A stretch of 64,000 bases of DNA from an uncultured Cytophagia bacterium (GCA_964498785.1 CAZCJL010000020.1:4946-68945), one strand, 5' to 3'. Numbered from the stretch's first letter, positions 2,077-27,813 are shown. Made by a program: numbers and translations. Notes: generated by a model not told the origin, from the letters alone.

Positions 2077-3465
2077 ATGAATCAGAAAATTAAAAGAAAA
2101 ACAATTACCACAGAAATTAGTATAAACGAATTTGATGCCCAATTGACTAACCTCGATCTTTCGGTGTCCGATCAGAAAGAAAAACTTCAAATTGCAAAAA
2201 ATATTTTAGAAATTCCTGATAGTTTTACGGATAAAATTGAAATTATTCCAAATGGGGAATACATTGTATTTAAATGGCGGCCGAATCGCTATGATGACAG
2301 AGCTGAAAAATTACATAAAAATGCTCTGACACTGGCACGCGAAGGTAAATTGGAAGATGCTATTAAAAGATGGACTCAGGCTACGCTAATAAATTCCACT
2401 GATCCTGATTATTTTTTCAATCTTGGAATTGCGTATTTCGAGAAAAAACAATTTCAAGAATCAATTGAACACCTTAATAGAGCTTTGGCAATTTGCCCAT
2501 TTTATACAAAAGCTCATCTAATTCTTGGCACCGCGTTTTTAAAAATAAGAAAGTTTGAATTTGCAAAAAAGCACTTGCAAAAAAGCATAAAATATTCAAA
2601 ACCAATGGCTTCTGCGTATCTAAATTTAGGGGCAGTTAATAGCATTCTGAAGATGTATGATGAGGGACTTAAAATGTTTGAAAAAGCCATCGAGATTTCT
2701 CCGAATGAACCTCGCGGATATTTAGGGCTTGCAAAGATATATTCAACAATTGGTAATGATGAAAAAGCAAATTTGTTTTTCAAAAAAGTAATTGAACTTG
2801 ATCAAAAAGGTAATTTAGCTAACTATGCCAAAAGATCAATAGTAAGTGACAGCACAACAAATTACCCAACAGAAGATCGCGACGAAAACGAAACATTGTA
2901 TCAAACCCCCGAAGAATATTACTCTGAAGGTTACCGATTATACATTAGCGGGGATTATATTAACGCAGAAAAAATGTATAAAAGCTACCTTAAGATAAAA
3001 CCCGATGATGATTATGTTTGGTATGCTCTCGGAGAGGCACAATTGAGAAGCAACAAGCCAGAAGATGCTGCAAATTCCTTTAAAAAAGCGATTAAACTGT
3101 ATCCTAAAAAGGGATTATATTTTAAAGAATTAGCCATTGCTTTTGATGTTTTAAATAAACCGGACAAGGTAATTGCTGCCACATCTAAAGCCAAAGAGTT
3201 GGGAAAAACTGATAGCGTCATTTATTGCCTTTGGGGAAAAGCACTTTTTGACTTAGGTAAATACAGTGAAGCAGTAATGATGTTAGAACAAGCTATTGAG
3301 ACGAATAAGAACAATTTTAAAGCCAAATATTTTATTGCAAAGACACATATTGAATTAAAGAATCATCAAGAAGCGATGGATATATTGTACGAATTAAAAG
3401 AAATAAAAATCAATACGCCTTTAAAAGACAAAGCAACACAGATGTACAATAAATTAAACCAATAA
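2077..3465 (+). CDS. Tetratricopeptide (TPR) repeat protein
   Basis: 462 aa with multiple 34-residue TPR-like repeats, e.g. YFFNLGIAYFEKKQFQESIEHLNRALAICP, AHLILGTAFLKIRKFEFAKKHLQKSIKY and YVWYALGEAQLRSNKPEDAANSFKKAIKLYP. Confidence 0.7.
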   Translation: MNQKIKRKTITTEISINEFDAQLTNLDLSVSDQKEKLQIAKNILEIPDSFTDKIEIIPNGEYIVFKWRPNRYDDRAEKLHKNALTLAREGKLEDAIKRWTQATLINSTDPDYFFNLGIAYFEKKQFQESIEHLNRALAICPFYTKAHLILGTAFLKIRKFEFAKKHLQKSIKYSKPMASAYLNLGAVNSILKMYDEGLKMFEKAIEISPNEPRGYLGLAKIYSTIGNDEKANLFFKKVIELDQKGNLANYAKRSIVSDSTTNYPTEDRDENETLYQTPEEYYSEGYRLYISGDYINAEKMYKSYLKIKPDDDYVWYALGEAQLRSNKPEDAANSFKKAIKLYPKKGLYFKELAIAFDVLNKPDKVIAATSKAKELGKTDSVIYCLWGKALFDLGKYSEAVMMLEQAIETNKNNFKAKYFIAKTHIELKNHQEAMDILYELKEIKINTPLKDKATQMYNKLNQ

Positions 3466-3917
3466 AAACACAATTAATGGGTCATATAAGATATATTATG
3501 TAAACTGGCGAATTTATTATTCACTTTTCTTCTAAACGCTCACGAAATTCTCTCCGTGCTAATACATACTTTTACAACATTTAAACCTCTTGTTTATTAA
3601 TTTGTTAAAGTTATTTCACCTATTAACCATAAATGTTTTACAATGAACACGCTGTTTCATGATGAAACATTAAATTATTCCTACCTCACATAATTATTAC
3701 ATATAAGGCGTTGATATTTATAGTACTATGATTCTTGAAGCGTTTGGCATCATATTTGTTAATAAAATAGAAATATTATGATACTTAACTAACTGAAATA
3801 TTTTAATTAACTAAGAGCACTACAACTGGTACTATGTTCAATATCGCACGGAAAAGGCATATTCACAACTTTTATTTGGCAAAGACAGTCAAAAAAGCTC
3901 CACATATTGAAGAAACA

Positions 3918-4844
3918 ATGAATTATGGAGTTAATTTAAAACGATCAGTAGTTATATCTTTATTATTAATAATTATTTGTTTCAATTTATATCCTTATTA
4001 TACGAAACAAAAAATCTATAAAAAAATACAAGATATTTCAACATTAGAGGTTATCGATATTCCTGTTATCGAGTTAGAACAGCCACCACCACCTCCGGTT
4101 AACATAGTAGAGCCAATGACGATGGTCAAAGTTGAAGAACCAAAAGTCGACAAGGAAAATCTGAAAGAAGAAATTAAAGAAATGGATCTTAAATTGGATA
4201 TAGCAAATGATGATAATGAATTGTTATTGGCAAGTTCTCAATTGGGTGATTTCGGCTCTTTAAGTTTCTCATCGAGAAATATTGATCGTCAATCAATGGG
4301 ATCATTGGACTTAGAGTATAGTCGATCTCGTCCAAATCTCAATTCGGGAAACCCCCTTTCGTTAGATCTTGGTTCGCCGGATGCAAAAGTCAATAAAAAA
4401 TATAAGGAAAAATCAATTAATTTAGATACAAAATCGTTGGTCGCTCAAAATAAACCGAAAAAGCCAAAGAAACCAATATCGAATTACGAGTCAAATTTAG
4501 AAAAAGTTATTCAAGTAGATAAAGATCAATTTTTATTACGAGAGTCTGAATCAACAATTGGCACCACAGAATTTAAAACATGGAATCGAATTAACGCGGT
4601 TCTCGACCGTCTTAATAAAGATCGTTATGGTGAATTGCCTGTAAATGTCAAACGTATTTCCAATGGACTGGCAGTTTCATTTTCCTACAGAAATGGGAAG
4701 GCTCATGATATTTTTTGGTCAAAAGGCGGAAAAGTAATTATTCGTGTTACCGGAGCACAACCAAAAAGCAATATCGATGAGTTACAAAGAGCGTATGACG
4801 CTTTATTGCGGTTGTTGTACAAAACAAATTCTTCGACGTCATGA
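3918..4844 (+). CDS. Hypothetical membrane-anchored protein with Pro-rich and Lys-rich linker
   Basis: Tracked ORF is 3834..4844. The likely start is the Met at 3918 (MNYGVNLKRSVVISLLLIIICFNLYPYY, one N-terminal TM helix). The rest contains PPPPPV and KKPKKP low-complexity segments. No recognised catalytic motifs. Confidence 0.4.
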   Translation: MNYGVNLKRSVVISLLLIIICFNLYPYYTKQKIYKKIQDISTLEVIDIPVIELEQPPPPPVNIVEPMTMVKVEEPKVDKENLKEEIKEMDLKLDIANDDNELLLASSQLGDFGSLSFSSRNIDRQSMGSLDLEYSRSRPNLNSGNPLSLDLGSPDAKVNKKYKEKSINLDTKSLVAQNKPKKPKKPISNYESNLEKVIQVDKDQFLLRESESTIGTTEFKTWNRINAVLDRLNKDRYGELPVNVKRISNGLAVSFSYRNGKAHDIFWSKGGKVIIRVTGAQPKSNIDELQRAYDALLRLLYKTNSSTS

Positions 4845-5536
4845 CTAAAATCAAATGCTTAATAATTATGTTACTTTTCTTTACATTATTTCTTCCTCTT
4901 TCCGCACAAGAAGTGCATAACATTTTTTCAAAAGTAAAGATTGAATTCACAAATCAAAATTATCATGCAGTGTTAAATTTATGTCGCGAAATTGAAAGAA
5001 TATGTAGCATAAATCCTGTTTCAGAATGTTATTTTACAAATGTGATGAAAAATGTTTATCGCTATAAGGGATTATCTGAATTTGAAATTTATAAACAAGA
5101 ATTAAAGCCGAAAAGACTTGAAAATTCTATTCAATCGCTGGAAATTAGTTATGGTCTTTATCGTGATGCAGAAATTTTATATACGTATGGGTATCTATTA
5201 GCGGTACAAGCAATATTATTGAAAAATGTGAATGATTTGGATGGTCTTGTTAAAGCCTGGAAAGGAATTATTGAATTATATGGCCATAATAACTGGCAGG
5301 TAAATAAAGATTTAATTGAAAAAATTAAAGACTACATTAAAGTGACTGAAAAATTTGTTATTAAAGTTCCGAGTAAGAATTATGGGGGGCATTATGCAAA
5401 ATTTATGATTGTCATGGCATGTGATTTAGCGGAAAATGCTCAGTTGAACTACGATGATCAAAATTTTTTTAACACATACAAAAAAAAATATAACACAAGT
5501 AAAATTAATAGGTTAATAGATAAGTTAACGGAGTAG
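4841..5536 (+). CDS. Exported hypothetical protein (paralog family A, short member)
   Basis: 231 aa with an N-terminal signal peptide (MTKIKCLIIMLLFFTLFLPLSAQE). The whole protein aligns by eye with the N-terminal ~200 aa of the next gene product (NLCREIERICS…CYFTNVMKNVYRYKGLSEFEIY… vs NLCKQIILRCE…CRYTDVMKQVYQFKGFSEYKLY…; NDLDGLVKAWKGIIELY vs NLDGLVNAWRGILGLY). Confidence 0.5.
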   Translation: MTKIKCLIIMLLFFTLFLPLSAQEVHNIFSKVKIEFTNQNYHAVLNLCREIERICSINPVSECYFTNVMKNVYRYKGLSEFEIYKQELKPKRLENSIQSLEISYGLYRDAEILYTYGYLLAVQAILLKNVNDLDGLVKAWKGIIELYGHNNWQVNKDLIEKIKDYIKVTEKFVIKVPSKNYGGHYAKFMIVMACDLAENAQLNYDDQNFFNTYKKKYNTSKINRLIDKLTE

Positions 5537-5541
5537 CTGTT

Positions 5542-6987
5542 ATGAGAAAGTTTGGTTCTCTTTTTTTAGTGCTTTTCATCTTAATTCTCTCAACTTCTCA
5601 TTTACATGCACAGAATGTAAGATCACTGTATAATAAAGTGAAAAAAGCGCACAAAGAAGATAATTTTGCCACTGTGGTAAATCTTTGTAAACAAATAATT
5701 TTGAGATGCGAGCAAAATTATCCTGATGCCGAATGTCGATATACAGATGTTATGAAACAAGTATATCAATTTAAGGGTTTTTCAGAATACAAGCTCTATT
5801 TAAGGGAAAATAATCTGGATCGTCTTGAAGACGCTATCAATTCGCTTATTAAAAGTTATGATCTTTATGGTGATCCATACATTTCCTTTAATTTCGGTTA
5901 TATGCAATCATTATTAGCGATCAAAAGAGAAGATGGCCGAAATCTAGATGGACTTGTGAATGCATGGAGAGGTATTTTAGGATTATATGCAAATGAAGAA
6001 TGGTCTGTGTCTAACGATCTGCTTGACAAATTAAAAATCTTCACCCAGCAGTCAGTTGAATTAGCGATTACACCGTCTGATAGTGCTTTTACCACTGGGC
6101 GCTTTAATGGCTTTATGATTCAATTAGCTTGTGACCTGGCAAAAACTCGCCGGTTATCCCGGGAGGATAGTCTGTTTTTCAACATCTACTATAGTCGAGC
6201 TGTTGAAGATGAAATAAATTTACGGGGAAATGAGTGGCGAGCCCGAGGATTTTCAGCACAAAAGCTTTTCAAAGAAAATCCAAATGATTCTACTTACAGA
6301 GTGGCGCGGAAGTATTTGGAGCTTGCTTTTCGTTTTGCAAAAAGCGCTCAAAGACAGGCTGAAATGTTGAAAGAACTTACCAAAGTTGCACTTTACATGG
6401 AAAAATATGGAAAAAAAAGCCAAAGAGAAACCGAACTACAATATGCACGGGAAAAAGCAAGTCAGGCCTATGCAATCTTAATAGAACATAGCTCTGATAT
6501 TGACCGTGAGTTAGAAAATGAGATCAAAAAAGTATATGGTAATGCAATCTTTCGGCTTGTTGATTACTATTTTAGTATGGCAACGGCAAAAGACCGCATG
6601 AATGCGTTTTACCGTGCAAAACGAGTTGGAGACGAATTATTAGTCTCGGATGGTAGCGGCGGACTTGTGCAAAAATTCGAATGGGAAGGTTATGAGGACT
6701 TGTATCTGAAACTATCTGATGTAGGTTACGAAATTGGCGAAGAACATTTCGCAGTCGATATGGTAGATAAGGCCTGGAAAGCAGCTTTAAAAATAAATAA
6801 AATTACCCTACCACAAATTTACGGGGCTGTCCCCTCTCAAAAGGCCAAAGAATTATTACAGTTTGCCCAGGTATATCATCAGATCGCTGAACGTTTTGGT
6901 TTACAATCAGTTTTACACTGGTTGCGACCGATTATTAAAAATCTGACGAATAAATCAGTATTAACTTCATCAGGAGGCGCATATTAA
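5542..6987 (+). CDS. Exported hypothetical protein (paralog family A, long member: A-domain plus a helical C-terminal extension)
   Basis: 481 aa with a signal peptide (MRKFGSLFLVLFILILSTSHLHAQN). The N-terminal domain is paralogous to the 4841..5536 product. The C-terminal ~280 aa are predicted helical with no recognised motif. Confidence 0.5.
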   Translation: MRKFGSLFLVLFILILSTSHLHAQNVRSLYNKVKKAHKEDNFATVVNLCKQIILRCEQNYPDAECRYTDVMKQVYQFKGFSEYKLYLRENNLDRLEDAINSLIKSYDLYGDPYISFNFGYMQSLLAIKREDGRNLDGLVNAWRGILGLYANEEWSVSNDLLDKLKIFTQQSVELAITPSDSAFTTGRFNGFMIQLACDLAKTRRLSREDSLFFNIYYSRAVEDEINLRGNEWRARGFSAQKLFKENPNDSTYRVARKYLELAFRFAKSAQRQAEMLKELTKVALYMEKYGKKSQRETELQYAREKASQAYAILIEHSSDIDRELENEIKKVYGNAIFRLVDYYFSMATAKDRMNAFYRAKRVGDELLVSDGSGGLVQKFEWEGYEDLYLKLSDVGYEIGEEHFAVDMVDKAWKAALKINKITLPQIYGAVPSQKAKELLQFAQVYHQIAERFGLQSVLHWLRPIIKNLTNKSVLTSSGGAY

Positions 6988-7523
6988 TGAGATGTCGAAT
7001 CAGATGTTTGATAATCCTATTGACAATTTGTAATATATCCTTAATTTGGGGGCAGTCGGTTTTTGAGACAACTTTTGAAAAACAAATGATCGATTATGAA
7101 TATGATGTTGTTCGAACCTATAATGAACTACAAAAGTTTTTATACGATTGCGAACCGAATTCCGCTGAACAGGAAGCATTTGAAAATCTGCTTTCGATTT
7201 ATGTTGATAGAATACTGGAAATTTATAGCACCATGCAAAGATTATCTGGTTCAACACTTGAAACATATCGTGGTGTTGCCGCACGTGCTTTAATATTTCG
7301 GACATTGACCTATTTAGAACAATCCAAAACATCAGAAGAGCATTATCGTAGAGCTGCAGATGATTATAAACAGGCGCTGCAACTCTATCAGAAAGGTCGA
7401 AATATCCCTATCATGAATAAAAGATTACCCTATGAAGTATGGATTGGCAAAAAGATGTATACTCGCCTCTCAGATTTATTGGATGATAAAAGTAAAGGGT
7501 TTGATTTGTTAGATTCTTTTTAA
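6987..7523 (+). CDS. Exported hypothetical protein (paralog family B, short member)
   Basis: 178 aa with a signal peptide (MRCRIRCLIILLTICNISLIWGQS). Homologous to the N-terminal domain of the next gene product (ILEIYSTMQRLSG…AARALIFRTLTYLEQS…YRRAADDYKQALQLY vs ILEIYETLTLSS…AARSLIFRALTYLEKA…YEKACYDYYRALDMY). Confidence 0.5.
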   Translation: MRCRIRCLIILLTICNISLIWGQSVFETTFEKQMIDYEYDVVRTYNELQKFLYDCEPNSAEQEAFENLLSIYVDRILEIYSTMQRLSGSTLETYRGVAARALIFRTLTYLEQSKTSEEHYRRAADDYKQALQLYQKGRNIPIMNKRLPYEVWIGKKMYTRLSDLLDDKSKGFDLLDSF

Positions 7524-7557
7524 TGATAAAAATATTTATTTATAATCGGGTAGTTAA

Positions 7558-8811
7558 ATGAAAACGCATATTAGTAGTTTACTAATTACATTCCTGGTAA
7601 TTCCTTTCTTTTGTTTCGGACAAAGTCATCATAATATTCTCATAAATAAAATGGAGGAATACGAGGAAGATATTCAAAACACATATAGCGAGTATCAAAA
7701 AGTTTATTATGAAAGAAAATCAAGCAAAAGTGAATTACTGGCGTTTGAAGAAATCATTTCTGTTTATGTTTCACAAATTCTGGAAATTTATGAAACACTT
7801 ACGCTATCTTCTATTAAGATGATGGAAAAACCGCGTGATATTGCTGCGCGCTCATTGATATTTCGGGCACTAACATATCTTGAAAAAGCACCACTAAATG
7901 TTGAGTTTTACGAAAAAGCGTGCTATGATTATTATCGTGCACTGGATATGTACAATGAAAGTAATAAAGTCCCTGTAATTTTAAAATCATTGCCTAAACC
8001 AATTCGTGTTGCGAATATTGAATATAAACGTTTAATTGATTTAATTGAAGCAAAAGGAAATGAGTTGTTTTCGTTCGGAAAGGTGAAGATTGTTCTAAAA
8101 AGCTTTAAAATTACATCAAATTTAAATGCAGAGTCTTTTGAATTTATACGCTTTAGCTCTCCTGCCCGGACAAGAAAATATACCTATGATGAGGCCGAAA
8201 CCAGAATTAAGAGTGCTTTTAGCGAAATCCTATTTAACAATAATTCTAATAGTTTCTTTTTGGCATTGCCAGAAGGTTCATATTTTATTCGATCACGCAC
8301 AATTGATAACCCTTTATTTCCCTATTTATCCGCTATTTATGTTCGAGCAAACCAACAACAGGAATATGTTATTGAACCCCTGGTCGATTGGATAATAATG
8401 TACGAAAATCCAACCACAAAACAACCAGATTTTTATAAAGCGAATGATTCTTTCTCCGTGAATGGCCAGGGACAGGGCAATGGTGGTTCTTCTTTTATTT
8501 CAAATTACAACAGGGAAAACAATGAAACTGTAAATCTATCGATAATCGACGATGCTATATCAAATACAATTGAGAATGTTGATATTAATAAAATATTTAA
8601 TTTACGAGATCCCTGGATTCGTAGTCGGTTTGCGAATGTCGCATCAAAAACTATTTTGATGCGCTTATCGTCATCACAATATTATAATAGCTGGAGTAAT
8701 TGGTGGGATGCATGGGAGATTTCTAAAGAAATTACATCTCAATTTAGTCCGGGAAATGCAGTACCAACCGAATTAATACAATTGGTTCATCAGGTTTTAC
8801 TGAAATTCTAA
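7558..8811 (+). CDS. Exported hypothetical protein (paralog family B, long member)
   Basis: 417 aa with a signal peptide (MKTHISSLLITFLVIPFFCFGQS). The N-terminal domain is paralogous to the 6987..7523 product. The C-terminal ~250 aa are unique. Confidence 0.5.
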   Translation: MKTHISSLLITFLVIPFFCFGQSHHNILINKMEEYEEDIQNTYSEYQKVYYERKSSKSELLAFEEIISVYVSQILEIYETLTLSSIKMMEKPRDIAARSLIFRALTYLEKAPLNVEFYEKACYDYYRALDMYNESNKVPVILKSLPKPIRVANIEYKRLIDLIEAKGNELFSFGKVKIVLKSFKITSNLNAESFEFIRFSSPARTRKYTYDEAETRIKSAFSEILFNNNSNSFFLALPEGSYFIRSRTIDNPLFPYLSAIYVRANQQQEYVIEPLVDWIIMYENPTTKQPDFYKANDSFSVNGQGQGNGGSSFISNYNRENNETVNLSIIDDAISNTIENVDINKIFNLRDPWIRSRFANVASKTILMRLSSSQYYNSWSNWWDAWEISKEITSQFSPGNAVPTELIQLVHQVLLKF

Positions 8812-8826
8812 TTAAAAGGAAATAAT

Positions 8827-9810
8827 ATGCGGTTTTTTAAATACATGCTGATTCTGGGATTCTTCCTGTTAGTAGTTGCAAACGTTTCTGGACAAAGTTT
8901 TGATAAAAGTATTTTGAAAAAATATGAAGAGTGTTGGTCCGCTAAAAAAGAAACTACACTACTGGACACAATAAAAGTCGCAATGAGTAAGAAGAAAATT
9001 GAAGAACATTTCAGAAGACATGATTTTATCCAGACTTTTGGATGCGCTTATGAAGAAAACGATATTCAACAAAATTCGATTCGAGCTGTATATCGTGCAA
9101 TCATTCAATCGACTCGGAATCGAAATGTTAAATTAAGAGATGATTTATTAGCTGCTTTACGAGCCAATCCTCCACGTCCGGATAATTTGATGAGAGAATA
9201 TTCGATTTATGTGAATATTCCACTTCAAAATGGTGTAAAAGCAGCCAGATATGAAATTAAAATACTCGATCTCATTGCAGTTTCAACTATTGAATCTGAA
9301 ATGGCGGTTTGGACACGTATCGTTACCCGATTCGCATATAAAGAGGATTTTAACAAAATAAGCGAAACCAAACAGGTAGAGTCGGAATTTGTGCAAGTGA
9401 TGCAAAGGGCACAGGAAATTCTTACTGCTATTGAAAGAAAGAAATTTTCATCAATTAAAAAAATGCTAAATATAGGTAATGTTGCAGATGTTTATCCGGA
9501 GTCAATCGATGATTTAAGTTTTGGAGACTCTATGCATTTATTTGATGAACAAAATCAAAAAAAGACTTATTTAGGGATATATTTGGGCAAAGGCATTTTT
9601 GCAAGTGATTCACCCGATCATGGCGTCGTTGTTTGTAAATTCGGCGAAGAAAGGTTGTATGGGATTCGAATTGATACCAATACATTTCGTCGTACTACGA
9701 CTATTTTTGCAGAATTAAATTACCAGGCCCCTGAAATTATTTTACAATGTTTATTCATTAAATTCGGAGCAAAAAAACCACAAGGATTACCATCGTTGGA
9801 TAATTTATAA
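8827..9810 (+). CDS. Exported hypothetical protein
   Basis: 327 aa with a signal peptide (MRFFKYMLILGFFLLVVANVSGQS). No recognised domain. Last member of a co-directional run of secreted proteins. Confidence 0.45.
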   Translation: MRFFKYMLILGFFLLVVANVSGQSFDKSILKKYEECWSAKKETTLLDTIKVAMSKKKIEEHFRRHDFIQTFGCAYEENDIQQNSIRAVYRAIIQSTRNRNVKLRDDLLAALRANPPRPDNLMREYSIYVNIPLQNGVKAARYEIKILDLIAVSTIESEMAVWTRIVTRFAYKEDFNKISETKQVESEFVQVMQRAQEILTAIERKKFSSIKKMLNIGNVADVYPESIDDLSFGDSMHLFDEQNQKKTYLGIYLGKGIFASDSPDHGVVVCKFGEERLYGIRIDTNTFRRTTTIFAELNYQAPEIILQCLFIKFGAKKPQGLPSLDNL

Positions 9811-9902: not shown

Positions 9903-10056
9903 TGTGTATGTTTATCAAAATCTAAACATGCATTATGGCATGGATTTTTTATACTGGATTAGTCTTTTTTTTTAATTCAAATAAACATAAAATTAAATAA
10001 TGAGGTATGTATGACATGTAATTGAACCTTAATCTTTAATCTTAGGAGGGAGACAC

Positions 10057-13436: not shown

Positions 13437-14363
13437 ATGGGAACAGTCGGATATTCGCAAAATAATCGATTAGCATATTATTATGCTTTGCCAGCACTTT
13501 TTGTTATGGCGCTGGTCGTGGTGTATCCGTTTATATACAATGTTATCATCTCATTCTCCAATATGAACCTGACGCATTTCAGGGATTGGCAAATTGTGGG
13601 TCTCAGAAGCTACTGGCAGGTATTGACTGACGATACAATGCATTTAAAGCTATTAGGAATACCAGTCCCCGATTTCTGGTATTTTTTTATTAAAACAATT
13701 TTATGGACAGCTTTAAACATCTTATTTCATGTGACGATTGGTGTTTTTCTGGCAATAATTTTAGATAAAGACATTAAAGGAAAAACTGTTTTTCGAACGT
13801 TGCTTATTCTACCATGGGCCGTTCCCCAATATATTACCGCGCTAACATGGCGGGGAATGTTTACCTCCAATTATGGCGCAATTAGTTTGTTTTCTGAAAA
13901 ATTCTTTGATACACAAATTCCCTGGCTAACAACAGAATGGGGCGCTTTTTCTGCATGTCTAATAACAAATATTTGGTTGGGTTTTCCGTTCATGATGATT
14001 ATTGCACTCGGAGGATTACAAAGCATACCTGATGAACTTTATGAAGCAGCAGAAATTGACGGTGCTGCATGGTTCCATAAACTCAAAAATATTACCATTC
14101 CATTACTTAAGCCTGTAATGATTCCGGCAATTACTTTAGGTGTTATTTGGACATTTAATAATTTTAATGTCGTATGGTTGGTTAGCAACGGAGGTGAGCC
14201 GTCGGATACAACACATATTCTCGTTTCCTGGGTTTATAAGTCCGGTTTTACATATATTCGAATGGGTTATGCAGCCGCTTTTTCGATGATCATTTTTGCT
14301 ATTTTAATTGTGTTTAGCTGGAATTTTATTAAACGAACAAAAGCCACAGAAGCTGTTTACTGA
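13437..14363 (+). CDS. Sugar ABC transporter permease (MalF/UgpA-like)
   Basis: 308 aa, 6 TM. EAAEIDGAAWFHKLKNITIPLLKP is the ABC permease EAA signature. Confidence 0.8.
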   Translation: MGTVGYSQNNRLAYYYALPALFVMALVVVYPFIYNVIISFSNMNLTHFRDWQIVGLRSYWQVLTDDTMHLKLLGIPVPDFWYFFIKTILWTALNILFHVTIGVFLAIILDKDIKGKTVFRTLLILPWAVPQYITALTWRGMFTSNYGAISLFSEKFFDTQIPWLTTEWGAFSACLITNIWLGFPFMMIIALGGLQSIPDELYEAAEIDGAAWFHKLKNITIPLLKPVMIPAITLGVIWTFNNFNVVWLVSNGGEPSDTTHILVSWVYKSGFTYIRMGYAAAFSMIIFAILIVFSWNFIKRTKATEAVY

Positions 14364-14668
14364 TGAAATTAATAATACCAACAGAATATAAATGCTATTT
14401 TTTAACTGATAATTTTAAGCAATATAACAAAATAAATCACAAATACATTATTATGCATAGAATAATGGAATATGGTTCAAGTGATGCTTTAAGATGGTTG
14501 TTATCCATTTACTCAAAACATGAGATAAAAGATTTTATCCTTAAAAAGGGAATCAAATATTTATCAAATAAATCACTGACATACTATCGCGTAATTTTGG
14601 ACATATCGGAAGACGAATGGAAACGAATATCCTTACAGAAACGCAGAAATCATTTTTTAGCAAGTTAA
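14363..14668 (+). CDS. Hypothetical protein (AT-rich insertion, ORF 1)
   Basis: 101 aa in a strongly AT-rich stretch. No recognised motif. Overlaps the next ORF by 52 nt. Possibly the partner of the DUF1814-like ORF. Confidence 0.3.
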   Translation: MKLIIPTEYKCYFLTDNFKQYNKINHKYIIMHRIMEYGSSDALRWLLSIYSKHEIKDFILKKGIKYLSNKSLTYYRVILDISEDEWKRISLQKRRNHFLAS

Positions 14669-15243
14669 ATGAAATTGAAATAATCAAACATTTTTATCTC
14701 GGAAATGGAACCGGCCTCGCCTTGCAGATTGGTCACCGGAAAATTAATGAACTAAATTTCTATACAGCCGAAAATCAATATAATAATTTTCTTAAAAATA
14801 CTTTAACTAAAAGTGATTTATATAAATTAATCTATGAAGATTCAAAAAATATTACATTTTCCTATGAAAACAATTTAGTTTATTTTTCTGAACACCCCTA
14901 TCCCCTGCTCGGTTTAGTTAAAAAAACTGAGTGGAATTTCGGATGTTTGGATATTAAAGATATTGCCTGCATGTGTCTTTTTAATATTGTAAGCAGGGGT
15001 TTTATTACCGATTTTATTGACTTGTACTATATTATTTTCAAAAAATACAGTCTTGATCAGATCATTTCTTTTTTTGAAGATAAATATCGTTCCATTTCTT
15101 ATGAAAATCAACTCATTTTGAAAAGCTTAGTCTATTTTGATGAGGCAAATATTCAATCGCGACCAGATATGCTGGTTGATATGAATTGGGGGAAAATTAA
15201 AAATTATTTTACGAAATATGTTAAAGTAATGAATAAACTATAG
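14617..15243 (+). CDS. DUF1814/AbiEii-like nucleotidyltransferase-fold protein (putative type IV TA toxin / Abi-like), possibly with a degenerate active site
   Basis: 208 aa. N-terminal FYLGNGTGLALQIGHRKINELNFY resembles the LKGGTAL…R.SEDLDF motif of DUF1814, with Glu/Asn in place of the two Asp. C-terminal CLFNIVSRGFITDFIDLYYIIFKKYSLDQIISFFEDKY matches the conserved K..AL..R..RDLYDLYYL region of that family. Confidence 0.4.
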   Translation: METNILTETQKSFFSKLNEIEIIKHFYLGNGTGLALQIGHRKINELNFYTAENQYNNFLKNTLTKSDLYKLIYEDSKNITFSYENNLVYFSEHPYPLLGLVKKTEWNFGCLDIKDIACMCLFNIVSRGFITDFIDLYYIIFKKYSLDQIISFFEDKYRSISYENQLILKSLVYFDEANIQSRPDMLVDMNWGKIKNYFTKYVKVMNKL

Positions 15244-15251
15244 AACCTAAT

Positions 15252-16094
15252 ATGCGAAATCCAAGAGACCTATCAAAGGTAGGCAAAACTGGAGCCTATG
15301 TCGTTTTGACTATTTTTACATTGTTTGCCATTTACCCGATTTTACGGGTAATTAGTATTTCCTTGCGACCGGGTGATCGACTGTTGAGCAAATCACTGGC
15401 AATTATTCCGGATGGAGCTTCATTAACGAACTACTATAATCTAATTTTTAATCAGCCATTTTTAAGTTGGATGTGGAACAGCATCATTGTCTCAGCAATC
15501 GTAACATTTGTCGGCGTGGGGTTGGCAGCAAGCGCAGGATATTCTTTTTCCCGCTATAAATTTATCGGGCGAAACTCTGCAATGTTTGGATTAATCGCAA
15601 CACAAATGTTTCCGGCAACAATGTTACTTCTTCCATTATTCATTACTCTTATTAAATTAAAGTTATATGATTCATATTTAAGCTTGATCGTTGCATACTC
15701 CGCAACTGCATTGCCTTTTACAACATGGCAAATGAAGGGTTATTATGATACTATCCCGTTTAGCATCGAAGAAGCAGCAAGCATCGATGGTTCTTCTCAA
15801 TTTGGAACTTTTTGGAGAATCGTGCTGCCATTGGCATCTCCGGCATTGGTTATTACTGCGCTGTTTTCGTTTATGACAGCCTGGTCTGAATATCTGGTTG
15901 CAGCCGTCCTAATCCAGGATCAAAGTTTATTTACACTGCCATTAGGTTTAAAAATGTTTCAATCAGCGATGGAAACATCTTGGGGGCTTTATTCGGCTGG
16001 TGCAGTCCTTGTAAGCATTCCGATTGTGACGCTATTTCTTTATCTGAGTCAATGGCTAATTTCCGGATTAACGCTTGGCAGTGTAAAAGGATAA
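15252..16094 (+). CDS. Sugar ABC transporter permease (MalG/UgpE-like)
   Basis: 280 aa, 6 TM. EEAASIDGSSQFGTFWRIVLPLASPAL is the EAA signature. Partner of the permease at 13437..14363. Confidence 0.8.
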   Translation: MRNPRDLSKVGKTGAYVVLTIFTLFAIYPILRVISISLRPGDRLLSKSLAIIPDGASLTNYYNLIFNQPFLSWMWNSIIVSAIVTFVGVGLAASAGYSFSRYKFIGRNSAMFGLIATQMFPATMLLLPLFITLIKLKLYDSYLSLIVAYSATALPFTTWQMKGYYDTIPFSIEEAASIDGSSQFGTFWRIVLPLASPALVITALFSFMTAWSEYLVAAVLIQDQSLFTLPLGLKMFQSAMETSWGLYSAGAVLVSIPIVTLFLYLSQWLISGLTLGSVKG

Positions 16095-17199: not shown

Positions 17200-17706
17200 A
17201 TGATCGATTCTCAAAAATTAACAAAATCAGAATTACACGATCTTTTAGTCGATGCAGCAAAAAACTGGCTGGCACACGATGGTTTATGGTTTCTTGCCGC
17301 GGAAGAAAAATACGGAATGCCGGCTGCAATTGAACTTGACCGTGAAGCATGGCGAAAATTCACTGTGGTGGAAGCAAAACGAATCATGAAGCGTTTGGGA
17401 ATGGAACCTGGCGGAGGAATTCCGGCGTTAATAACAGCGCTGGATTATCGCCTTTATGCCTATATTAACATACAATCGGTTGAAGCTGTCAGCGCTAATC
17501 GGTGTATTTTTAAAATGAATAATTGCCGCGTACAAGCCGCCAGAAAAATGAAGAACCTCCCTGATTTTCCCTGCAAATCAGTTGGAATTGTTGAATATCG
17601 ATATTTTGCCCAAACAATAGATCCACAAATTAAAACAAAATGCCTTACCTGTCCCCCGGATGACCATCCTGATGATTATTACTGTGCATGGGAATTTACA
17701 ATCTGA
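17200..17706 (+). CDS. Conserved hypothetical protein (DGLWF motif, Cys-rich C-terminus)
   Basis: 168 aa. WLAHDGLWFLAAEEKYG and C-terminal CLTCPPDDHPDDYYCAWEF. Possibly a DUF-type small cytosolic protein. The 3' end overlaps the convergent aminotransferase remnant by 28 nt. Confidence 0.45.
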   Translation: MIDSQKLTKSELHDLLVDAAKNWLAHDGLWFLAAEEKYGMPAAIELDREAWRKFTVVEAKRIMKRLGMEPGGGIPALITALDYRLYAYINIQSVEAVSANRCIFKMNNCRVQAARKMKNLPDFPCKSVGIVEYRYFAQTIDPQIKTKCLTCPPDDHPDDYYCAWEFTI

Positions 17707-18401
17707 TTATGAATATTTTTCAAATTATCAAAATGCTTTTGATTTACATAAAGAAAACCTGTTCCCATTGGCCCAACTAACCATTTCATGCCACCGGCAC
17801 AATAAAAATCGATACTGTATTTGTTAAGCTGTGCCGGGATGGCGCCAACAGCCTGAATACCATCAACGATCAGATACAGACCATGTTCTTTTGCAATATC
17901 TCCTAATTTTGGAAGATTAAGACGGTAGCCGGACAAAAAATGGACATGATCCACAACAATTGCACGAGTATGACTATCAATATTTTCAATTAGCCTCCTA
18001 TAAAAGTTAACCCCGTTGTTTAGCGGAACATATTTTTTTTTCGCAACATCAAAAATATGATGCAGGATATACAAGCTCGCCGGAAATGCGTCGGCTTGTA
18101 CAATTATATTGTCCCCTGCTTTTAAGTCTATCGAGTGCAATGCAATTGATAACCCCTCGGTTGTATTATGAATGAATGCAATTTCATCAGAGTCAGCAGT
18201 AACCATTTGGGCCATTGCTGCCCGGAAGTCATTTAATTTGCTCATTATTTCCTCAATACGGGGCTCACCTGTTTCTACTAATTGATCAATTAACGACTTC
18301 ATGGCTTCTGTGCATTGTAACGGCATCATACCAACAGCAGCATGATTTAAATACGTCTGATTTGATTTATCATTAAAATATTTCCGGAATTTCTTATCCA
18401 T
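17679..18401 (-). pseudogene. Class V aminotransferase (cysteine desulfurase/SufS-like) N-terminal and large-domain fragment lacking the C-terminal small domain
   Basis: 240 aa. YLNHAAVGMMP near the N-terminus, HNTTEGLS, YLIVDGIQAVGAIP and the PLP-lysine region FYCAGGMKWLVGPMGTGFLY are all class V hallmarks. The ORF ends ~30 residues after the PLP Lys, whereas the family is ~380-400 aa. No downstream continuation in any minus frame; the + strand gene occupies the space. Confidence 0.45.
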
Positions 18402-18744: not shown

Positions 18745-20076
18745 ATGAACCGCTTACTCTCACAACGAGATATTTATATTTTATTTTTAATACTAATCCT
18801 CTTTTCTCAGAGATCCGTATTCGCTCAACAAGCTGAAAATGATTCCAGCCGAAATTATTTACAAAATATGAATCCTAAAATTCATCCATTACGTAATCAC
18901 CAAAAAGATCGTCCAGCTTTTGAAAAAGCGATGCGAGTACCAATAAATATCGTTGAATTTCCGTTTTGGGTTATGGGAAGAGGTTTGGAAAATTCACTTC
19001 AATATATTGAACATAATAAAATTTTTGAAAAATTTGAATTTATCGAAGATTGGCTTGAAAAGCATCATATTCTCTTCGAAGATGGATCTCAGGGTATTGG
19101 ATCTGGATTAGGCCCTGCTGTTGGTTTGTTCACCCATAGTGGGGATTTAAAATTAGCGGTTTCATCGGCGTTGACCACCTGGGGCTATCAAGGGCACAAA
19201 ATCTGGTTTGAATTACCGGAGCTTAATTGCCAAACTCGGTTAGATGGTTGGATAAAATTTCAAAATCGGACCCGGGATAATTTTTTCGGTATCGGGTCAG
19301 ATTCTAAGAATGATGACCGAACGCAATTTCAACAATCGAACGTTAACGGAGGCATTGAATTTTCGTATGCTACAAAAAAATTAAATTTAACTGCATCCAC
19401 AGACTTCACAAAATATAATGAAATTAACGATCCTTTCTGGTCTGGCAGTAAGTCAACAAAGGAAAGATTCAGCGAACTTCCGGGTATTGATGGCGCAGAA
19501 TTGGTTCGCGTGGGCTTACGGCTAACTCACCCGGAAGTCTTGTATAAAGGTTTACCAGGCGTTGAAATCGCTGTTGATTTTTCTGCCGATTATTTTTGGC
19601 AATTGGATTATGACAACAATCGTTTTGATAGATATACGCTTATTTTATATCAAAGCATCCCGCTGTTTCATGGGGATAGACTTTTCGCGATTCGATGTGG
19701 CGGCTCTATGACCAATACAAAAGGAAATTTGACTATTCCTTTTTATGCACTCAATAATTTTGGCGGATGGAATTCGCTGCGCGGGTATGAGAGTTTAAGA
19801 TTTAGAACCCTGGATTGGGTGCTTTTGAATCTGGAATATCGATATCCGATTATGGATATCGGTCTTGAAAATGGATTCGCAATTGATTTCCTCTATTTTT
19901 TTGACGCTGGCATTCCTTCAAATGAAATTGAAAATGATTTAAATATTAAAAATATTTTAAAAACTTACGGAGCAAGCATTCGCTTGCGAAAAAAACTCGG
20001 TGTCATTTTGCGGCTTAGTATTGCAAGAAGTTCAGAATCAACTTTAATCGGATTAAAAATTGGAAAGGATTTTTAG
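18745..20076 (+). CDS. Omp85/BamA-superfamily outer-membrane beta-barrel protein (no POTRA array evident)
   Basis: 443 aa with a signal peptide (…ILFSQRSVFAQQ). C-terminal region FLYFFDAGIPSNE…YGASIRLRKKLGVILRLSIARS…GLKIGKDF resembles the conserved Omp85 barrel C-terminus (FFDAGN…GLGLR…) and ends in an aromatic residue (F). Confidence 0.6.
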   Translation: MNRLLSQRDIYILFLILILFSQRSVFAQQAENDSSRNYLQNMNPKIHPLRNHQKDRPAFEKAMRVPINIVEFPFWVMGRGLENSLQYIEHNKIFEKFEFIEDWLEKHHILFEDGSQGIGSGLGPAVGLFTHSGDLKLAVSSALTTWGYQGHKIWFELPELNCQTRLDGWIKFQNRTRDNFFGIGSDSKNDDRTQFQQSNVNGGIEFSYATKKLNLTASTDFTKYNEINDPFWSGSKSTKERFSELPGIDGAELVRVGLRLTHPEVLYKGLPGVEIAVDFSADYFWQLDYDNNRFDRYTLILYQSIPLFHGDRLFAIRCGGSMTNTKGNLTIPFYALNNFGGWNSLRGYESLRFRTLDWVLLNLEYRYPIMDIGLENGFAIDFLYFFDAGIPSNEIENDLNIKNILKTYGASIRLRKKLGVILRLSIARSSESTLIGLKIGKDF

Positions 20077-23087: not shown

Positions 23088-24422
23088 ATGACCGGTCAAT
23101 TAAAAACAATAATGAACATCCGGCGGGATGAACTACCGTTTTCATTGTTCATGTTTACCTATTTTTTTCTAATCATTACAAACTTCTGGATTTTAAAGCC
23201 CTTAAAAAAAGGCTTATTTATCGGTTTTTATAAAGTGCGGGAAGGAGTAGATCTGTTCTCGTGGCATTTATTGGGTTCGCAAGCAGAACTTCTTGCAAAA
23301 GTATTGAATATGGTTGTCGCATTTTTCGCAGTTATTGTATTTACGTGGCTTGCCAGAAAATTCAGGCGACAACAACTTACATATATTTTTTCTGTATTTA
23401 TCGCATTCTGTCTGATTATATTTTCATTTGTAATCAATAAACCCAATGATTTAACCGTCTGGTTATTTTACTTGTTTGGCGACCTCTTTAACACATTAAT
23501 GGTCGCCACATTTTTTTCATTTCTAAATGATAGTGTAAATACTGATTCTGCCAAACGACTTTACGGTTTAGTTGTGCTCGGCGGTGTAACAGGAGGTGTT
23601 TTCGGAACTCAATTTGTGCGCATCTGGATTGATGACATGACAATGATTTCATGGCTCTGGATTTCCCTTTTTATTACCATCCTTATTGCGTTGATAGCGG
23701 GACTTGCCGGACGTATGGTTAAAGAAAATAACTTTGACGAGATTAAAAGCAAACCAACAATCAATGATAAAACAATAAAAACAAACGCTGCTATCGAAGG
23801 TGCCAAATTAGTTTTTAAATCAAAATACTTACTTGCTATTGTTGGTATTGTTGGATTTTATGAAATCCTTTCAACAGTCATGGATTTCCAATTTTCCGCG
23901 ACTATCGAACATTATCTTCATACGGAAGAAGCAATTGGCAAACAATTCGCAACAGTATTTTCGATTACGAACATCGTTGCACTGGTCGTCCAGCTCTTTC
24001 TGACAAGTTTTATTATGACAAAGTTTGGACTGACAGTTGCATTACTGATTTTACCATGCGCAATTATGTTTGGTTCGTTTACATTTTTAGCTTTTCCAAT
24101 TTTATGGGTTGGAAGTTTTCTGAATACGGCAGATAATGGTTTTAGCTATTCAATAAACCAATCAGCTAAAGAAGCGCTTTATGTTCCGACAAGCAGAGAC
24201 GAAAAATACAAAGCCAAAGCCTTTATCGATATGTTTGTGCAACGATTTGCCAAAGCATTAGCTGTTGGTATTAGCTTATTGATTACCACCATTTTTCGTG
24301 ATTTCTCCAGTATACGATGGCTATCCTTAATAACAATCATTGTTGTTGTTATTTGGATTCTTGTAGTTAGATTTGCTGGTAATAAATTTAACGAGTTGGC
24401 TCCTTCAAAGAAGAATGACTAA
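23088..24422 (+). CDS. TLC-family (ATP/ADP translocase-like, Npt-type) nucleotide transporter homolog
   Basis: 444 aa, ~12 TM. N-terminal ELPFSLFMFTYFFLIITNFWILKPLKKGLFIG resembles the TLC N-terminal signature (L.LMFFLI.FNY.ILR.LKD.L). DSAKRLYGLVVLGGVTGGVFG resembles the TLC AKRFYPLFG.GAN motif. Confidence 0.6.
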   Translation: MTGQLKTIMNIRRDELPFSLFMFTYFFLIITNFWILKPLKKGLFIGFYKVREGVDLFSWHLLGSQAELLAKVLNMVVAFFAVIVFTWLARKFRRQQLTYIFSVFIAFCLIIFSFVINKPNDLTVWLFYLFGDLFNTLMVATFFSFLNDSVNTDSAKRLYGLVVLGGVTGGVFGTQFVRIWIDDMTMISWLWISLFITILIALIAGLAGRMVKENNFDEIKSKPTINDKTIKTNAAIEGAKLVFKSKYLLAIVGIVGFYEILSTVMDFQFSATIEHYLHTEEAIGKQFATVFSITNIVALVVQLFLTSFIMTKFGLTVALLILPCAIMFGSFTFLAFPILWVGSFLNTADNGFSYSINQSAKEALYVPTSRDEKYKAKAFIDMFVQRFAKALAVGISLLITTIFRDFSSIRWLSLITIIVVVIWILVVRFAGNKFNELAPSKKND

Positions 24423-27225
24423 ATTAATTCGAAAAATACTGAATATAAATGAAGGTGAAGGATTAAAAGTATTTTTGATGTTTAGCTATATTTTTTTAGC
24501 TATCGCATCTCTTTTAATCGTTAAACCAGTTCGTAATTCTCTTTTTCTGAGCCATTTTGGTGTTGAAAAACTGCCGTACGCTTTTATTTCAGTTGCAGTA
24601 AGTGCAGCTATTTTTACAAATTTCTATTCCAGATATGCAAAGAAAATCCGCTTAAATATATTAATTTTCTATACAACCGTCTCATCCATTTGCTTTTTAA
24701 TTGTATTTTGGATTTTAATATTTTTAAATAGTAACGAAGGTTGGTTTTATTATTTTGTATATGCATGGGTTGCCCTTTTCGGTGTAATCACCACCTCACA
24801 ATTCTGGTTATTAGCAAATTATGTGTTCAATGCTCGTCAGGCAAAAAGATTATTCGGATTGATAGGAGCAGGTGCTATTTCGGGCGGAATCTTTGGCGGT
24901 TACCTGACCAAATTTCTGGCTCCGATAGTTGGAACAGGGAATTTATTTTTCTTTTGCATTTTTTTCCTGCTTCTTTGCCTCGTGATTATGAAAAAAGTCT
25001 GGAAACAAGGCGCCAGACAAACATATTCTGAGCGAATTCAGCAGGAAAAACGTATCCGAAAAAAATTAACTACCGACAAACCATTTGAATTGCTACAAAA
25101 ATCGAAGCATCTTTCGTATATCGCTGCTATCGTTAGCGTAGGAGTAATTGTTGCAAATCTAGTAGATTATCAATTTAGCGCCATTGCAAGTAATATCATT
25201 AAAGACGAAGATAATTTAACTGCTTTCTTCGGATTCTGGCTTTCCAATTTAAGTATTGCTTCACTATTAATACAATTGTTATTAACCGGTCGTAGTCTTA
25301 AAATATTCGGAGTCACGACTTCTCTCTTCTTTCTGCCATTTGGTATTTTAATTGGCGCGTTGGGCATTCTTTTCGATCCCAGGTTATGGTCTGCTGTTTT
25401 TATTAAGGTTTGTGACGGTAGCTTTAAGCAATCCATTCATAAGGCTAGTCTTGAGTTATTAGCTCTCCCCCTTCCAACCTCCTTAAAAAATCAAGGCAAA
25501 GCGTTTATTGATGTTTTTATCGATAGCCTGGCGACAGGAATCGGTGGAATATTTTTAATTATTTTTACGCAACAGTTCGGATTTTCTGTGCAACAAATCA
25601 GTTTTGTTTTAATTATATTCATAATTATTTGGTTTTACTTAATTAAGTCGGTAAAACAGCAATATATCAACTCATTTCGAACAGCAATTGAAAAAAGGTC
25701 AATCGATCTGCAAGATCAATATCTTAATATTCAGGAAGCATCTGTATTAAATAACATTTTAAAAATCCTTGATAGCAAAAACGAGCGACAAATTCTCTAC
25801 ATTCTTCAATTAATTGAAAATGTTAAAAGTGAACGTCTCATCCCTTATTTTAAAAAATTGATCAAACACCGATCCCATGAAATCAAAATACAGACATTGC
25901 GAATGATGAGAAATTATGAACACATTGATTTTGTTGATGATGTACGAAAGCTGACACAGGATTCCAATTTCAATGTAAAAGTTGAGGCGATTCGTTCTAT
26001 TTACGCAAATTCCAAAAACCGAAATCACGATTTAGAAAAATTATTAGTTGATCAGGATATTTTCATTCGAAGTGCGGCCTTACTATCCTCAGCTTATGAA
26101 CACAGAGATAGTAAGGAATTTCGAAAATCATTTAATATTAAAAACTTATTTGATCAATTTGTTGATAAATTTAGTGAGAAAAGTTTTCATCAGGAAGAAA
26201 TTGACTTTATGAAGACTGTCCTTGCAAAGGTAATTGGAATTTCAAAAATGACTGAGCTTTATCCATTTCTAAAAAATTTATTATTCGATAAAAATATAGA
26301 TGTTGTGCAAGAAGCGACAATTAATGCTGGTTTAACCAGACACAAAATGTTCTTCGAGATTCTTATACAATATTTAAACAAACACACTGTCAGAAAATAC
26401 GCTCGTAACGCGCTGGCAGAATATGAGAATGATGTTATTAATCCCCTAAAAAATTTATTGGAAAATGAAAAAGAAGACTATCAGTTGCGCAACGCAATTC
26501 CCAAAGTTTTGGCATTAATTGGAACCCAAGAATCAGTTAATCTATTGTTAGATAACTTGCTTCAGGAAGATTTAGCATTACGGTTTCAAATACTTCGGGC
26601 ATTAAACAGGTTACGAACGAATTTTCCATACTTAAAATTTGGGGACAACCGAATCCGAAATAGTATTGTTTTTGAGAGCAAAAATTACCATAAAATTTAC
26701 TCTTATTTATCAAATAGTGAATTGCTTGATAGCTATAACATCCAACACATACCTGATCATAAAAAAGCAAAAAAATCTCTCGATTTATTATTAACCTTAT
26801 TAAATGAACGTCTTGATAATACTCTTGAAAGAATATTTCGTCTGCTTGGTTTAAAATATTCATCTGGCGATATGTATAACGCTTATAGAGCGATAACAAG
26901 CAATAGCCCGGATTTGCGAGCGAATGCTGTTGAATTTCTCGAAAATATTCTGGACCCGAATTTAAAACGGATTATAATTCCAATTATAGAATATTCAACC
27001 AGTGCTTTGCTATCTGAGGAATTTAACTTCTCCCGAAAAGATGGTATGTTCCTGGAGCTATTAAAAGAAAAGGATTCATGGCTAAAAGTATGTACTATTT
27101 TCTATATTGCCGAGACTAACATGAACCATTATCAATCTGAAATAAAAAAACTAACAATGGATCATGATTCCACTGTTAAAGAAACCGCTGAATACGCTCT
27201 TGATTTATTAATAAATAGAAAATGA
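24415..27225 (+). CDS. TLC-family transporter domain fused to a C-terminal cytoplasmic HEAT/PBS-lyase-type repeat domain
   Basis: Start at the ATG at 24415 (MTKLIRKILNI…). ATGACTAA gives an 8-nt overlap with the upstream stop, suggesting translational coupling. The first ~440 aa have 12 TM, with GLKVFLMFSYIFLAIASLLIVKPVRNSLFL and QAKRLFGLIGAGAISGGIFGG motifs. The last ~500 aa are soluble alpha-helical repeats (e.g. ERQILYILQLIENVKSERLIPYFKKLIKHRSHEIKIQTLRMM…NVKVEAIRSI). Confidence 0.6.
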   Translation: MTKLIRKILNINEGEGLKVFLMFSYIFLAIASLLIVKPVRNSLFLSHFGVEKLPYAFISVAVSAAIFTNFYSRYAKKIRLNILIFYTTVSSICFLIVFWILIFLNSNEGWFYYFVYAWVALFGVITTSQFWLLANYVFNARQAKRLFGLIGAGAISGGIFGGYLTKFLAPIVGTGNLFFFCIFFLLLCLVIMKKVWKQGARQTYSERIQQEKRIRKKLTTDKPFELLQKSKHLSYIAAIVSVGVIVANLVDYQFSAIASNIIKDEDNLTAFFGFWLSNLSIASLLIQLLLTGRSLKIFGVTTSLFFLPFGILIGALGILFDPRLWSAVFIKVCDGSFKQSIHKASLELLALPLPTSLKNQGKAFIDVFIDSLATGIGGIFLIIFTQQFGFSVQQISFVLIIFIIIWFYLIKSVKQQYINSFRTAIEKRSIDLQDQYLNIQEASVLNNILKILDSKNERQILYILQLIENVKSERLIPYFKKLIKHRSHEIKIQTLRMMRNYEHIDFVDDVRKLTQDSNFNVKVEAIRSIYANSKNRNHDLEKLLVDQDIFIRSAALLSSAYEHRDSKEFRKSFNIKNLFDQFVDKFSEKSFHQEEIDFMKTVLAKVIGISKMTELYPFLKNLLFDKNIDVVQEATINAGLTRHKMFFEILIQYLNKHTVRKYARNALAEYENDVINPLKNLLENEKEDYQLRNAIPKVLALIGTQESVNLLLDNLLQEDLALRFQILRALNRLRTNFPYLKFGDNRIRNSIVFESKNYHKIYSYLSNSELLDSYNIQHIPDHKKAKKSLDLLLTLLNERLDNTLERIFRLLGLKYSSGDMYNAYRAITSNSPDLRANAVEFLENILDPNLKRIIIPIIEYSTSALLSEEFNFSRKDGMFLELLKEKDSWLKVCTIFYIAETNMNHYQSEIKKLTMDHDSTVKETAEYALDLLINRK

Positions 27226-27250
27226 TATCATTTAATAGCAGGTTTTTATC

Positions 27251-27676: not shown

Positions 27677-27720
27677 CACAAATAGGTCGAAACGGAAAAG
27701 CAAATTTTTTAACTAGATGC

Positions 27721-27749
27721 TTGCAATTTACAATCGTTTTTATTATATT
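27721..27749 (+). promoter_or_regulatory. Candidate sigma70-type promoter (TTGCAA-N17-TATATT) upstream of the REC gene
   Basis: TTGCAA at 27721-27726, a 17-nt spacer and TATATT at 27744-27749, ~65 nt upstream of the ATG at 27814. Confidence 0.35.
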
Positions 27750-27813
27750 GACTAATATTTATTTCTGATCTTGATGATTTATTCTAATTCTTCAAAAAGG
27801 AGATAATTTTTGT

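Follow-up and report, generated by a model that had tools for sequence, protein, structure and literature searches.

A phylum-wide operon of candidate division KSB1 that looks like a fixed cell-envelope module

The six-gene locus

The subject of this analysis is a run of six genes on the + strand of a 64,000-nucleotide stretch of DNA (CAZCJL010000020.1:4946-68945 of assembly GCA_964498785.1, labelled as an uncultured Cytophagia bacterium), which was analysed at its full length and is referred to below as the window; positions are counted from its first letter. The window belongs to a genome of candidate division KSB1 (Zhuqueibacterota-like), with its nearest relatives in the KSB1 bin WJJN01 (96% identity for protein C, described below). 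The genes, named A to F in the 5' to 3' direction, encode a membrane-anchored protein and five exported proteins, and their locus has the look of a fixed cell-envelope module, as opposed to a variable surface or effector family.

The open reading frames called in the window lie, all on the + strand, exactly where the initial annotation, made from the sequence alone, had placed six consecutive genes (3834-9810). Their junctions (A/B -4, B/C +5, C/D -1, D/E +34 and E/F +15 nucleotides) are spaced in a way that fits an operon, which is preceded by 369 nucleotides of intergenic space before A and followed by 246 after F. A terminator-like site downstream of F is probably the end of the transcription unit, a reading that stays suggestive because such sites are not more numerous than expected from shuffled sequence; a promoter scan of the region likewise gave no excess over the shuffle expectation.

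3834-4844, + strand: gene A, 336 amino acids, bitopic membrane protein (open reading frame and 35-sequence alignment)
4841-5536, + strand: gene B, 231 amino acids, exported short paralogue of the N-terminal half of C
5542-6987, + strand: gene C, 481 amino acids, exported all-alpha protein, predicted solenoid resembling tetratricopeptide repeats (TPR)
6987-7523, + strand: gene D, 178 amino acids, exported short paralogue of the N-terminal domain of E
7558-8811, + strand: gene E, 417 amino acids, exported three-part protein
8827-9810, + strand: gene F, 327 amino acids, exported alpha/beta protein
9927-9952, + strand: terminator-like hairpin (9927-9942) and T-run after F (consensus scan)

Family searches and export signals

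Scans of the six proteins against Pfam, NCBIfam, PADLOC and PHROG gave no family match, and the earlier impression that none of them belongs to a recognised family is borne out by the Pfam and NCBIfam results. With PADLOC and PHROG nothing fell below an E-value of 0.003, which leaves a defence or phage module unsupported. Pfam scans of every alignment member of A (35 sequences), E (31) and F (35) were equally negative, and the profiles of A, C and F found no match among PDB sequences.

Proteins B to F each begin with a basic and hydrophobic leader that ends in Ala or Gly followed by Gln. Orthologues of C, E and F whose genes were called independently have the same leaders, with a conserved Gln at position +1 that is near-invariant in C and E, so that the starts are not mis-called; the signal peptides first proposed for B to F are thus real features of these proteins and not artefacts of start assignment. 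No C-terminal sorting domain of the type IX secretion system (Por_Secre_tail, TIGR04183-type) was matched in any of the six proteins with Pfam or NCBIfam.

All six window proteins that carry a signal-peptidase-I leader, namely B to F and an Omp85-like protein encoded at 18745-20076, have Gln after the predicted [AG] cleavage site. According to PMC5837995, the 'Q-rule' (Gln at +1) is confined to Bacteroidetes and does not extend to the Fibrobacteres-Chlorobi-Bacteroidetes (FCB) group as a whole. Judging from these leaders, KSB1 may follow the Q-rule as well.

Distribution and gene order across the phylum

A pattern scan restricted to one genome per species yielded 38 KSB1 loci, which were taken with 10 kb flanks and from which open reading frames were extracted. 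In all sufficiently long loci among them the five genes A, C, D, E and F lie side by side in the same orientation, A being seen in 34 loci and D in 36. The five core genes are present in one copy per locus, the 10 kb flanks holding no others, and their order is fixed: F-A-C-D-E in most loci, A-C-D-E-F in two (L034 and L037) and A-B-C-D-E-F only in the clade of the window (L002-L008). The most distant contigs, L040 and L041, show the F-A-C-D-E order again; there C, E and F were confirmed by hidden Markov models, and their F sequences, with an E-value of about 1e-28, are among the most distant matches to the F profile in the large-scale search described next. On the contigs themselves F scores no better than about 1e-36 against its profile.

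When the F profile was compared exhaustively (HMMER) with 1.84 billion representative sequences, only 22 clusters were recovered. C has 84 homologues, with 55-89% identity across the phylum, and E has 78. The homologues of C, E and F come from metagenomes, every informative label being KSB1, 'Calditrichaeota' or Zhuqueibacterota, and none of them carries a Pfam domain. The proteins had been called lineage-specific, which by these labels is right at the level of the phylum. The operon is vertically inherited and KSB1 phylum-wide, with a core formed by A, a single-pass inner-membrane protein, together with C, D, E and F, which are soluble proteins exported by the Sec route.

When the flanking open reading frames were clustered, no further family turned up in more than 13 loci, the commonest being the clade-specific trio described below. 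The flanks differ between clades and are not conserved, which indicates that the module is self-contained. A TPR gene immediately upstream of the locus (2077-3465) was considered as a further member and rejected, as outside the window it is found beside the module in the nearest relative alone. A link to the sugar transporters downstream was rejected on the same ground. Downstream of the module the window encodes a solute symporter of the SSF family and a sugar ABC transporter, and it could be supposed that the exported products are periplasmic binding proteins that capture nutrients and feed these two systems. This is very improbable, since the transporter neighbourhood is limited to the window and its closest relative (L038), other loci having different flanks, the terminator-like site and the 246-nucleotide gap separate F from the next gene, and no solute-binding-protein fold or family was found.

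A second arrangement concerns partners encoded elsewhere. In other lineages, flagellar motors, type IV pili, gliding motors and the BAM complex of Bacteroidota have acquired lineage-specific TPR and bitopic periplasmic subunits, and the KSB1 proteins could likewise be lineage-specific periplasmic subunits of a machine (for motility, secretion or of BAM/LPT type) whose genes lie outside the module. The lipoprotein form of F in the distant lineages L040 and L041 and the Omp85-like gene 9 kb downstream in the window would agree with this. No such machine component is consistently adjacent, however, the Omp85 neighbour is not kept in other loci, and no similarity to GldK-N/PorK-N, Pil, Flg/Pfl or Bam proteins was found with Pfam or NCBIfam, so that we regard such an arrangement as decidedly unlikely.

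Some clade-level variation was seen around and within the module. In L040 (5856-6800) and L041 (4362-5330) F begins with a lipoprotein signal (LLSSC and LCLGC, respectively) instead of a signal-peptidase-I leader, and the E protein of L041 is about 120 amino acids longer. In one large KSB1 clade (L009, L016, L019 and about ten more) a divergent minus-strand trio of genes stands upstream of F; judged by motifs near their N-termini alone, these look like genes for a Ser/Thr protein kinase of about 895 amino acids (13 loci), an FHA-domain protein of about 780 amino acids (10 loci) and a PP2C-like phosphatase (9 loci). The presence of this trio beside the module could reflect a regulatory link or mere synteny within the clade.

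Two paralogue pairs of different age

The initial annotation had recognised two independent pairs of short and long paralogues. An all-vs-all BLASTP comparison of the six proteins recovers these two and only these: B matches residues 21-226 of C with 40% identity over 207 amino acids (E 2e-47), and D matches residues 1-171 of E with 38% identity over 175 amino acids (E 5e-33). None of the remaining pairs is significant by BLASTP, the match of B with D (E 0.04) being driven by the signal peptide. Profile-profile comparison with hhalign was negative for C with E and for F with E; the B/C domain, the D/E domain and F are not detectably related to one another.

5602-6219, + strand: N-terminal half of C (residues 21-226), counterpart of B (BLASTP)
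7558-8070, + strand: N-terminal domain of E (residues 1-171), D-like, helical with a hairpin (BLASTP and AlphaFold2 model)

Full-length C is present in every locus, while B is found solely in the window and in L002-L008, always directly 5' of C. Because C is universal and B is limited to one clade and lies next to C, B is a partial 5' duplicate and not a precursor. In the tree B forms a long-branched sister group of C, and its branching within that clade matches that of C; B has evolved at about twice the pace of C (for matched genome pairs, B shows 36-47% identity where C shows 72-74%), retaining, as read from the translations, the Cys residues of the N-terminal half of C (LCxxIxxxC...EC and ACDLA). 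B is thus a tandem partial duplicate of the 5' half of C, comprising the signal peptide and the N-terminal half, that was gained in the clade of the window. Growth of the long protein by domain accretion, as had been suggested for the pair, gets the direction wrong, the short gene being the later copy.

The history of D and E is older. Both genes are present in every locus, L040 and L041 included, and in the tree of the KSB1 loci each makes up a clade of its own, the two topologies running parallel, which indicates a single ancient duplication without later gene conversion or ongoing turnover. The identity between D and E within one genome is 27-43% in KSB1 loci and 19-21% in L040/L041. D, which all loci have kept, goes back to an older duplication of the 5' part of E, and the repeated duplication that had been read into the array gives way, for this pair, to one old event. 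The locus displays twice, at differing ages, how duplicating the 5' part of a gene in tandem, along with the signal peptide, gives rise to a free-standing copy of a putative interaction domain.

Selection and the absence of variation

Relative to the nearest relative, the nonsynonymous divergence (dN) is 0.026 for C, 0.061 for D, 0.061 for F, 0.071 for E, 0.090 for B and 0.131 for A. Synonymous divergence (dS) is saturated (at least 1.6), and dN/dS does not exceed about 0.05 for any of the six genes (0.05 for B against L002). All six genes are under strong purifying selection, and these low ratios rule out diversifying surface antigens or effectors. The region holds no long near-identical repeats, simple-sequence tracts or invertible-promoter-like repeats, its only DNA repeats being short remnants of the two paralogies. 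No paralogous copies beyond the two pairs occur in the 64 kb window, and the one-per-locus orthologues leave no copy-number variation across the loci.

These observations bear on the proposal, made in the initial annotation, that the array is a secreted binding or effector family, or a surface-variation locus, diversifying through repeated duplication and accretion. The two tandem short/long pairs, the signal peptides and the lack of any known family are what would be expected of such a locus, and the gain of B in a single clade, with its faster evolution than C, points in the same direction. The survey of copy number and synteny in relatives found one copy of each core gene in fixed order, and the window shows no expansion. 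One-to-one orthology, the constraint on all six genes, the separate D and E clades, the lack of additional copies in the window or the flanks and the absence of phase-variation signals contradict the proposal, which can be taken as essentially refuted.

Architecture of the membrane-anchored protein A

The alignment of 35 A sequences supports the N-terminal transmembrane anchor and Pro-rich linker that had been noted in the window protein. A has a basic cytoplasmic tail of about 38 amino acids with a conserved motif, one transmembrane helix and a Pro-rich stretch, the position of which is conserved; the charged linker that follows, of about 150 amino acids, is gappy and poorly conserved. The protein ends in a conserved domain with invariant residues W250, R259, G266, W295, G299, G307 and E316.

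3948-4001, + strand: transmembrane anchor of A, residues 39-56, VVISLLLIIICFNLYPYY (hydrophobic block in 35 of 35 orthologues)
4083-4097, + strand: PPPPP of A, residues 84-88, start of the variable-length linker (alignment)
4551-4826, + strand: C-terminal domain of A, residues ~240-331 (~95 amino acids), conserved in the alignment

Predicted structures of C, D and E

C is the most conserved member of the module, with a mean column identity of 66%. Its AlphaFold2 model (pLDDT 90.3, pTM 0.81) contains 21 helices of at least 12 residues and one beta hairpin. Foldseek returned 43 PDB matches at E-values of at most 1e-3, mostly TPR proteins (LGN, OGT, SPY and designed repeats), the best at about 1e-5, with TM-scores of just 0.2-0.3. 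In the Pfam and NCBIfam searches C had no match to the TPR clan; the neighbouring gene 2077-3465 yielded dozens in the same searches. As modelled, C is a helical repeat protein that resembles TPR solenoids and forms a type by itself.

No Pfam TPR repeat was detectable in D or E. E was modelled with F as one fusion using a block alignment (AlphaFold2, pLDDT 89.6), so that the relative orientation of E and F in the model is meaningless. Besides the D-like N-terminal domain, the model of E contains a beta-rich middle domain and a Trp-rich helical C-terminal domain, with a low-complexity loop between them.

8074-8406, + strand: middle domain of E, residues 173-283, beta-rich (AlphaFold2 model)
8443-8499, + strand: loop of E, residues 296-314, N/G/Q-rich, of low complexity and predicted to be disordered (pLDDT below 50; no consensus residue in the alignment)
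within 7558-8811, + strand: C-terminal domain of E, residues 313-417, helical and Trp-rich (AlphaFold2 model)

Neither PDB nor BFVD gave Foldseek a match to the E and F model at E-values of 0.001 or below.

Protein F and a possible NlpC/P60 relationship

About 60 residues of F are invariant in the alignment, most of them polar. They include Q69, T70, Y75, E76, N83, R90, Q94, S95, N98, R99, R104 and D105, and further R117, D119, N120, R123, E143, E156, S157, R164, R168, S186 and others. In the model an N-terminal alpha+beta subdomain, which holds most of the invariant polar residues, is followed by a C-terminal subdomain of five strands, and a helix closes the chain.

9376-9702, + strand: C-terminal subdomain of F, residues ~184-292, weak NlpC/P60 resemblance

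The top PDB fold match of F is MepS (8xud), with an E-value of 0.05 and 25% identity at a root-mean-square deviation of 3.1 over 64-70 columns, and the BFVD matches include NlpC/P60 proteins at E-values of 0.2-0.3. With hhalign, for which the MepS query was identical to 8xud residue for residue, F 228-274 aligned on MepS 127-171 (GD-LF...GIYLGxG) with an E-value of 0.03; this signal is weak, since shuffled sequences reached the same score in 4 of 200 trials. Under relaxed settings the start of the invariant SEFV helix of F falls on CSGFV of MepS. No match to PF00877 or to the NlpC/P60 clan was obtained, at E-values up to 5, in the F protein of the window or in the 35 alignment members. The F column at the position of the catalytic Cys of MepS is occupied by Pro, Glu or Gln, both His columns are non-His, and no His is conserved in F above 54%. 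If the similarity is real, the domain would be catalytically dead, since the Cys/His/His set is absent.

The conservation of F also raises the question of an enzymatic role. The module might encode a periplasmic enzyme pathway in which F, and perhaps C as an alpha/alpha-type enzyme, modify or turn over a polymer of the envelope or an imported one, with A, D and E as accessory proteins. Such a role would account for the number of invariant polar residues in F, among them Ser186, which is next to the NlpC/P60 nucleophile position, and for the column identity of C, unusually high for a TPR scaffold. No enzyme family was matched by sequence or by fold, however, F has neither a conserved His nor a Cys at the expected site, and the fold matches of C are solely protein-binding TPR solenoids; an enzyme pathway thus seems unlikely.

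Proposed function of the module

The products of the module may form one periplasmic envelope scaffold complex anchored in the inner membrane, a reading to which we would give about even chances and which is put forward because the module is conserved, operon-spaced, constrained and exported and has scaffold-like folds. In such a model the products of A, C, D, E and F would assemble as a single periplasmic complex. A would anchor it in the inner membrane, span the periplasm with a linker that is Pro-rich and disordered, as TolA, TonB and FtsN do, and present the conserved C-terminal domain. Protein-binding scaffolds or adaptors would be supplied by the solenoid of C and by the helical domains in D and E, and F, the protein richest in invariant polar residues, would be the ligand-binding or effector piece, the ligand possibly being peptidoglycan. 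B and D, as free copies of interaction domains, could occupy or extend the binding sites of their long relatives. By analogy with NlpI-MepS, the dead NlpC/P60-like subdomain of F would suggest peptidoglycan or another envelope polymer as a partner; this connection of the module to the cell wall is the more doubtful part of the proposal.

Several points weigh against a scaffold complex. The complex is inferred from synteny alone, and no tolQR, exbBD, pal or peptidoglycan synthase or hydrolase genes are consistently adjacent in the 38 loci. The NlpC/P60 likeness is sub-significant by each measure applied (Foldseek 0.05, hhalign 0.03, 4/200 shuffles), the TPR-like matches of C have TM-scores as low as 0.2-0.3, and enzymes could account equally well for how strongly C and F are conserved.

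More speculatively, A, C, D, E and F could constitute an unrecognised trans-periplasmic machine, a signature of KSB1/Zhuqueibacterota built from folds without detectable relatives, in which remodelling of the cell wall or outer membrane would be governed by TPR-like adaptors and a dead NlpC/P60-like subunit in place of a canonical system. This is a tentative idea that we would not favour at present.

Conserved hypothetical operons are commonplace in candidate phyla. The uncultured phylum KSB1, which belongs to the FCB superphylum, occurs worldwide, and to our knowledge nothing is known of its cell envelope. An intact and strongly constrained five-gene module without relatives elsewhere is a candidate lineage-defining envelope feature of KSB1, and is also serviceable as a phylogenetic marker.

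Other features of the window

Two small genes at 14363-15243, encoding a 101-amino-acid DUF6922 protein and an overlapping 208-amino-acid protein without a Pfam match, lie between the sugar ABC permease genes 13437-14363 and 15252-16094; the pair looks like an inserted two-gene cassette, possibly toxin-antitoxin-like. On the minus strand, an open reading frame of 240 amino acids (17679-18401) covers only positions 2-222 of a 371-position class-V aminotransferase profile; it might be a gene that was truncated or a pseudogene produced by a frameshift. The adjacent genes 23088-24422 and 24373-27225 both match the TLC ATP/ADP-transporter family, the second being a 950-amino-acid fusion with HEAT repeats; TLC-type nucleotide transporters are unusual outside obligate intracellular bacteria and plastids. 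Around 27000-28500 the gene orientation flips from + to - in a convergent arrangement, where the cumulative GC skew also peaks, and the G+C content changes from about 0.33-0.37 in the first part of the window to 0.39-0.45 in its second half.

Comparison with known envelope systems

A resembles TolA, TonB and FtsN in its short cytoplasmic tail, N-terminal transmembrane helix, Pro-rich and charged linker of variable length and small conserved C-terminal domain. It differs from them in having no match to TonB_C, TolA_C or SPOR and no PDB profile match, and the module differs from the TonB and TolA systems in that no exbBD or tolQR motor genes are found in it or beside it in any locus.

C as a whole and the helical parts of D and E can be compared with TPR adaptors and scaffolds of the envelope such as NlpI, CpoB/YbgF and BamD, with which they share export and, as modelled, an all-helical architecture that looks repetitive. 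NlpI is an adaptor for the MepS endopeptidase and the Prc protease, and C is encoded alongside F, the best PDB fold match of which is the MepS of the NlpI-MepS-Prc complex (8xud). Unlike NlpI, C is not a lipoprotein and is far larger; no homology to NlpI was detected, no Pfam TPR is present and the TM-scores stay at 0.2-0.3. F, for its part, shows in the alignments the motif order of MepS (an xSxFV helix, GD-hydrophobic-LF and GIYLGxG) and in its model a five-strand subdomain, and NlpC/P60 proteins are its best or near-best fold matches in two libraries, although with sub-significant scores; it departs from NlpC/P60 proteins in its extra, highly conserved N-terminal alpha+beta subdomain.

Taken together, A to F represent five or six uncharacterised families whose likeness to known envelope scaffolds is one of architecture only, and the module would, by analogy, be a functional counterpart of the NlpI-MepS or Tol-Pal/CpoB envelope adaptor systems.

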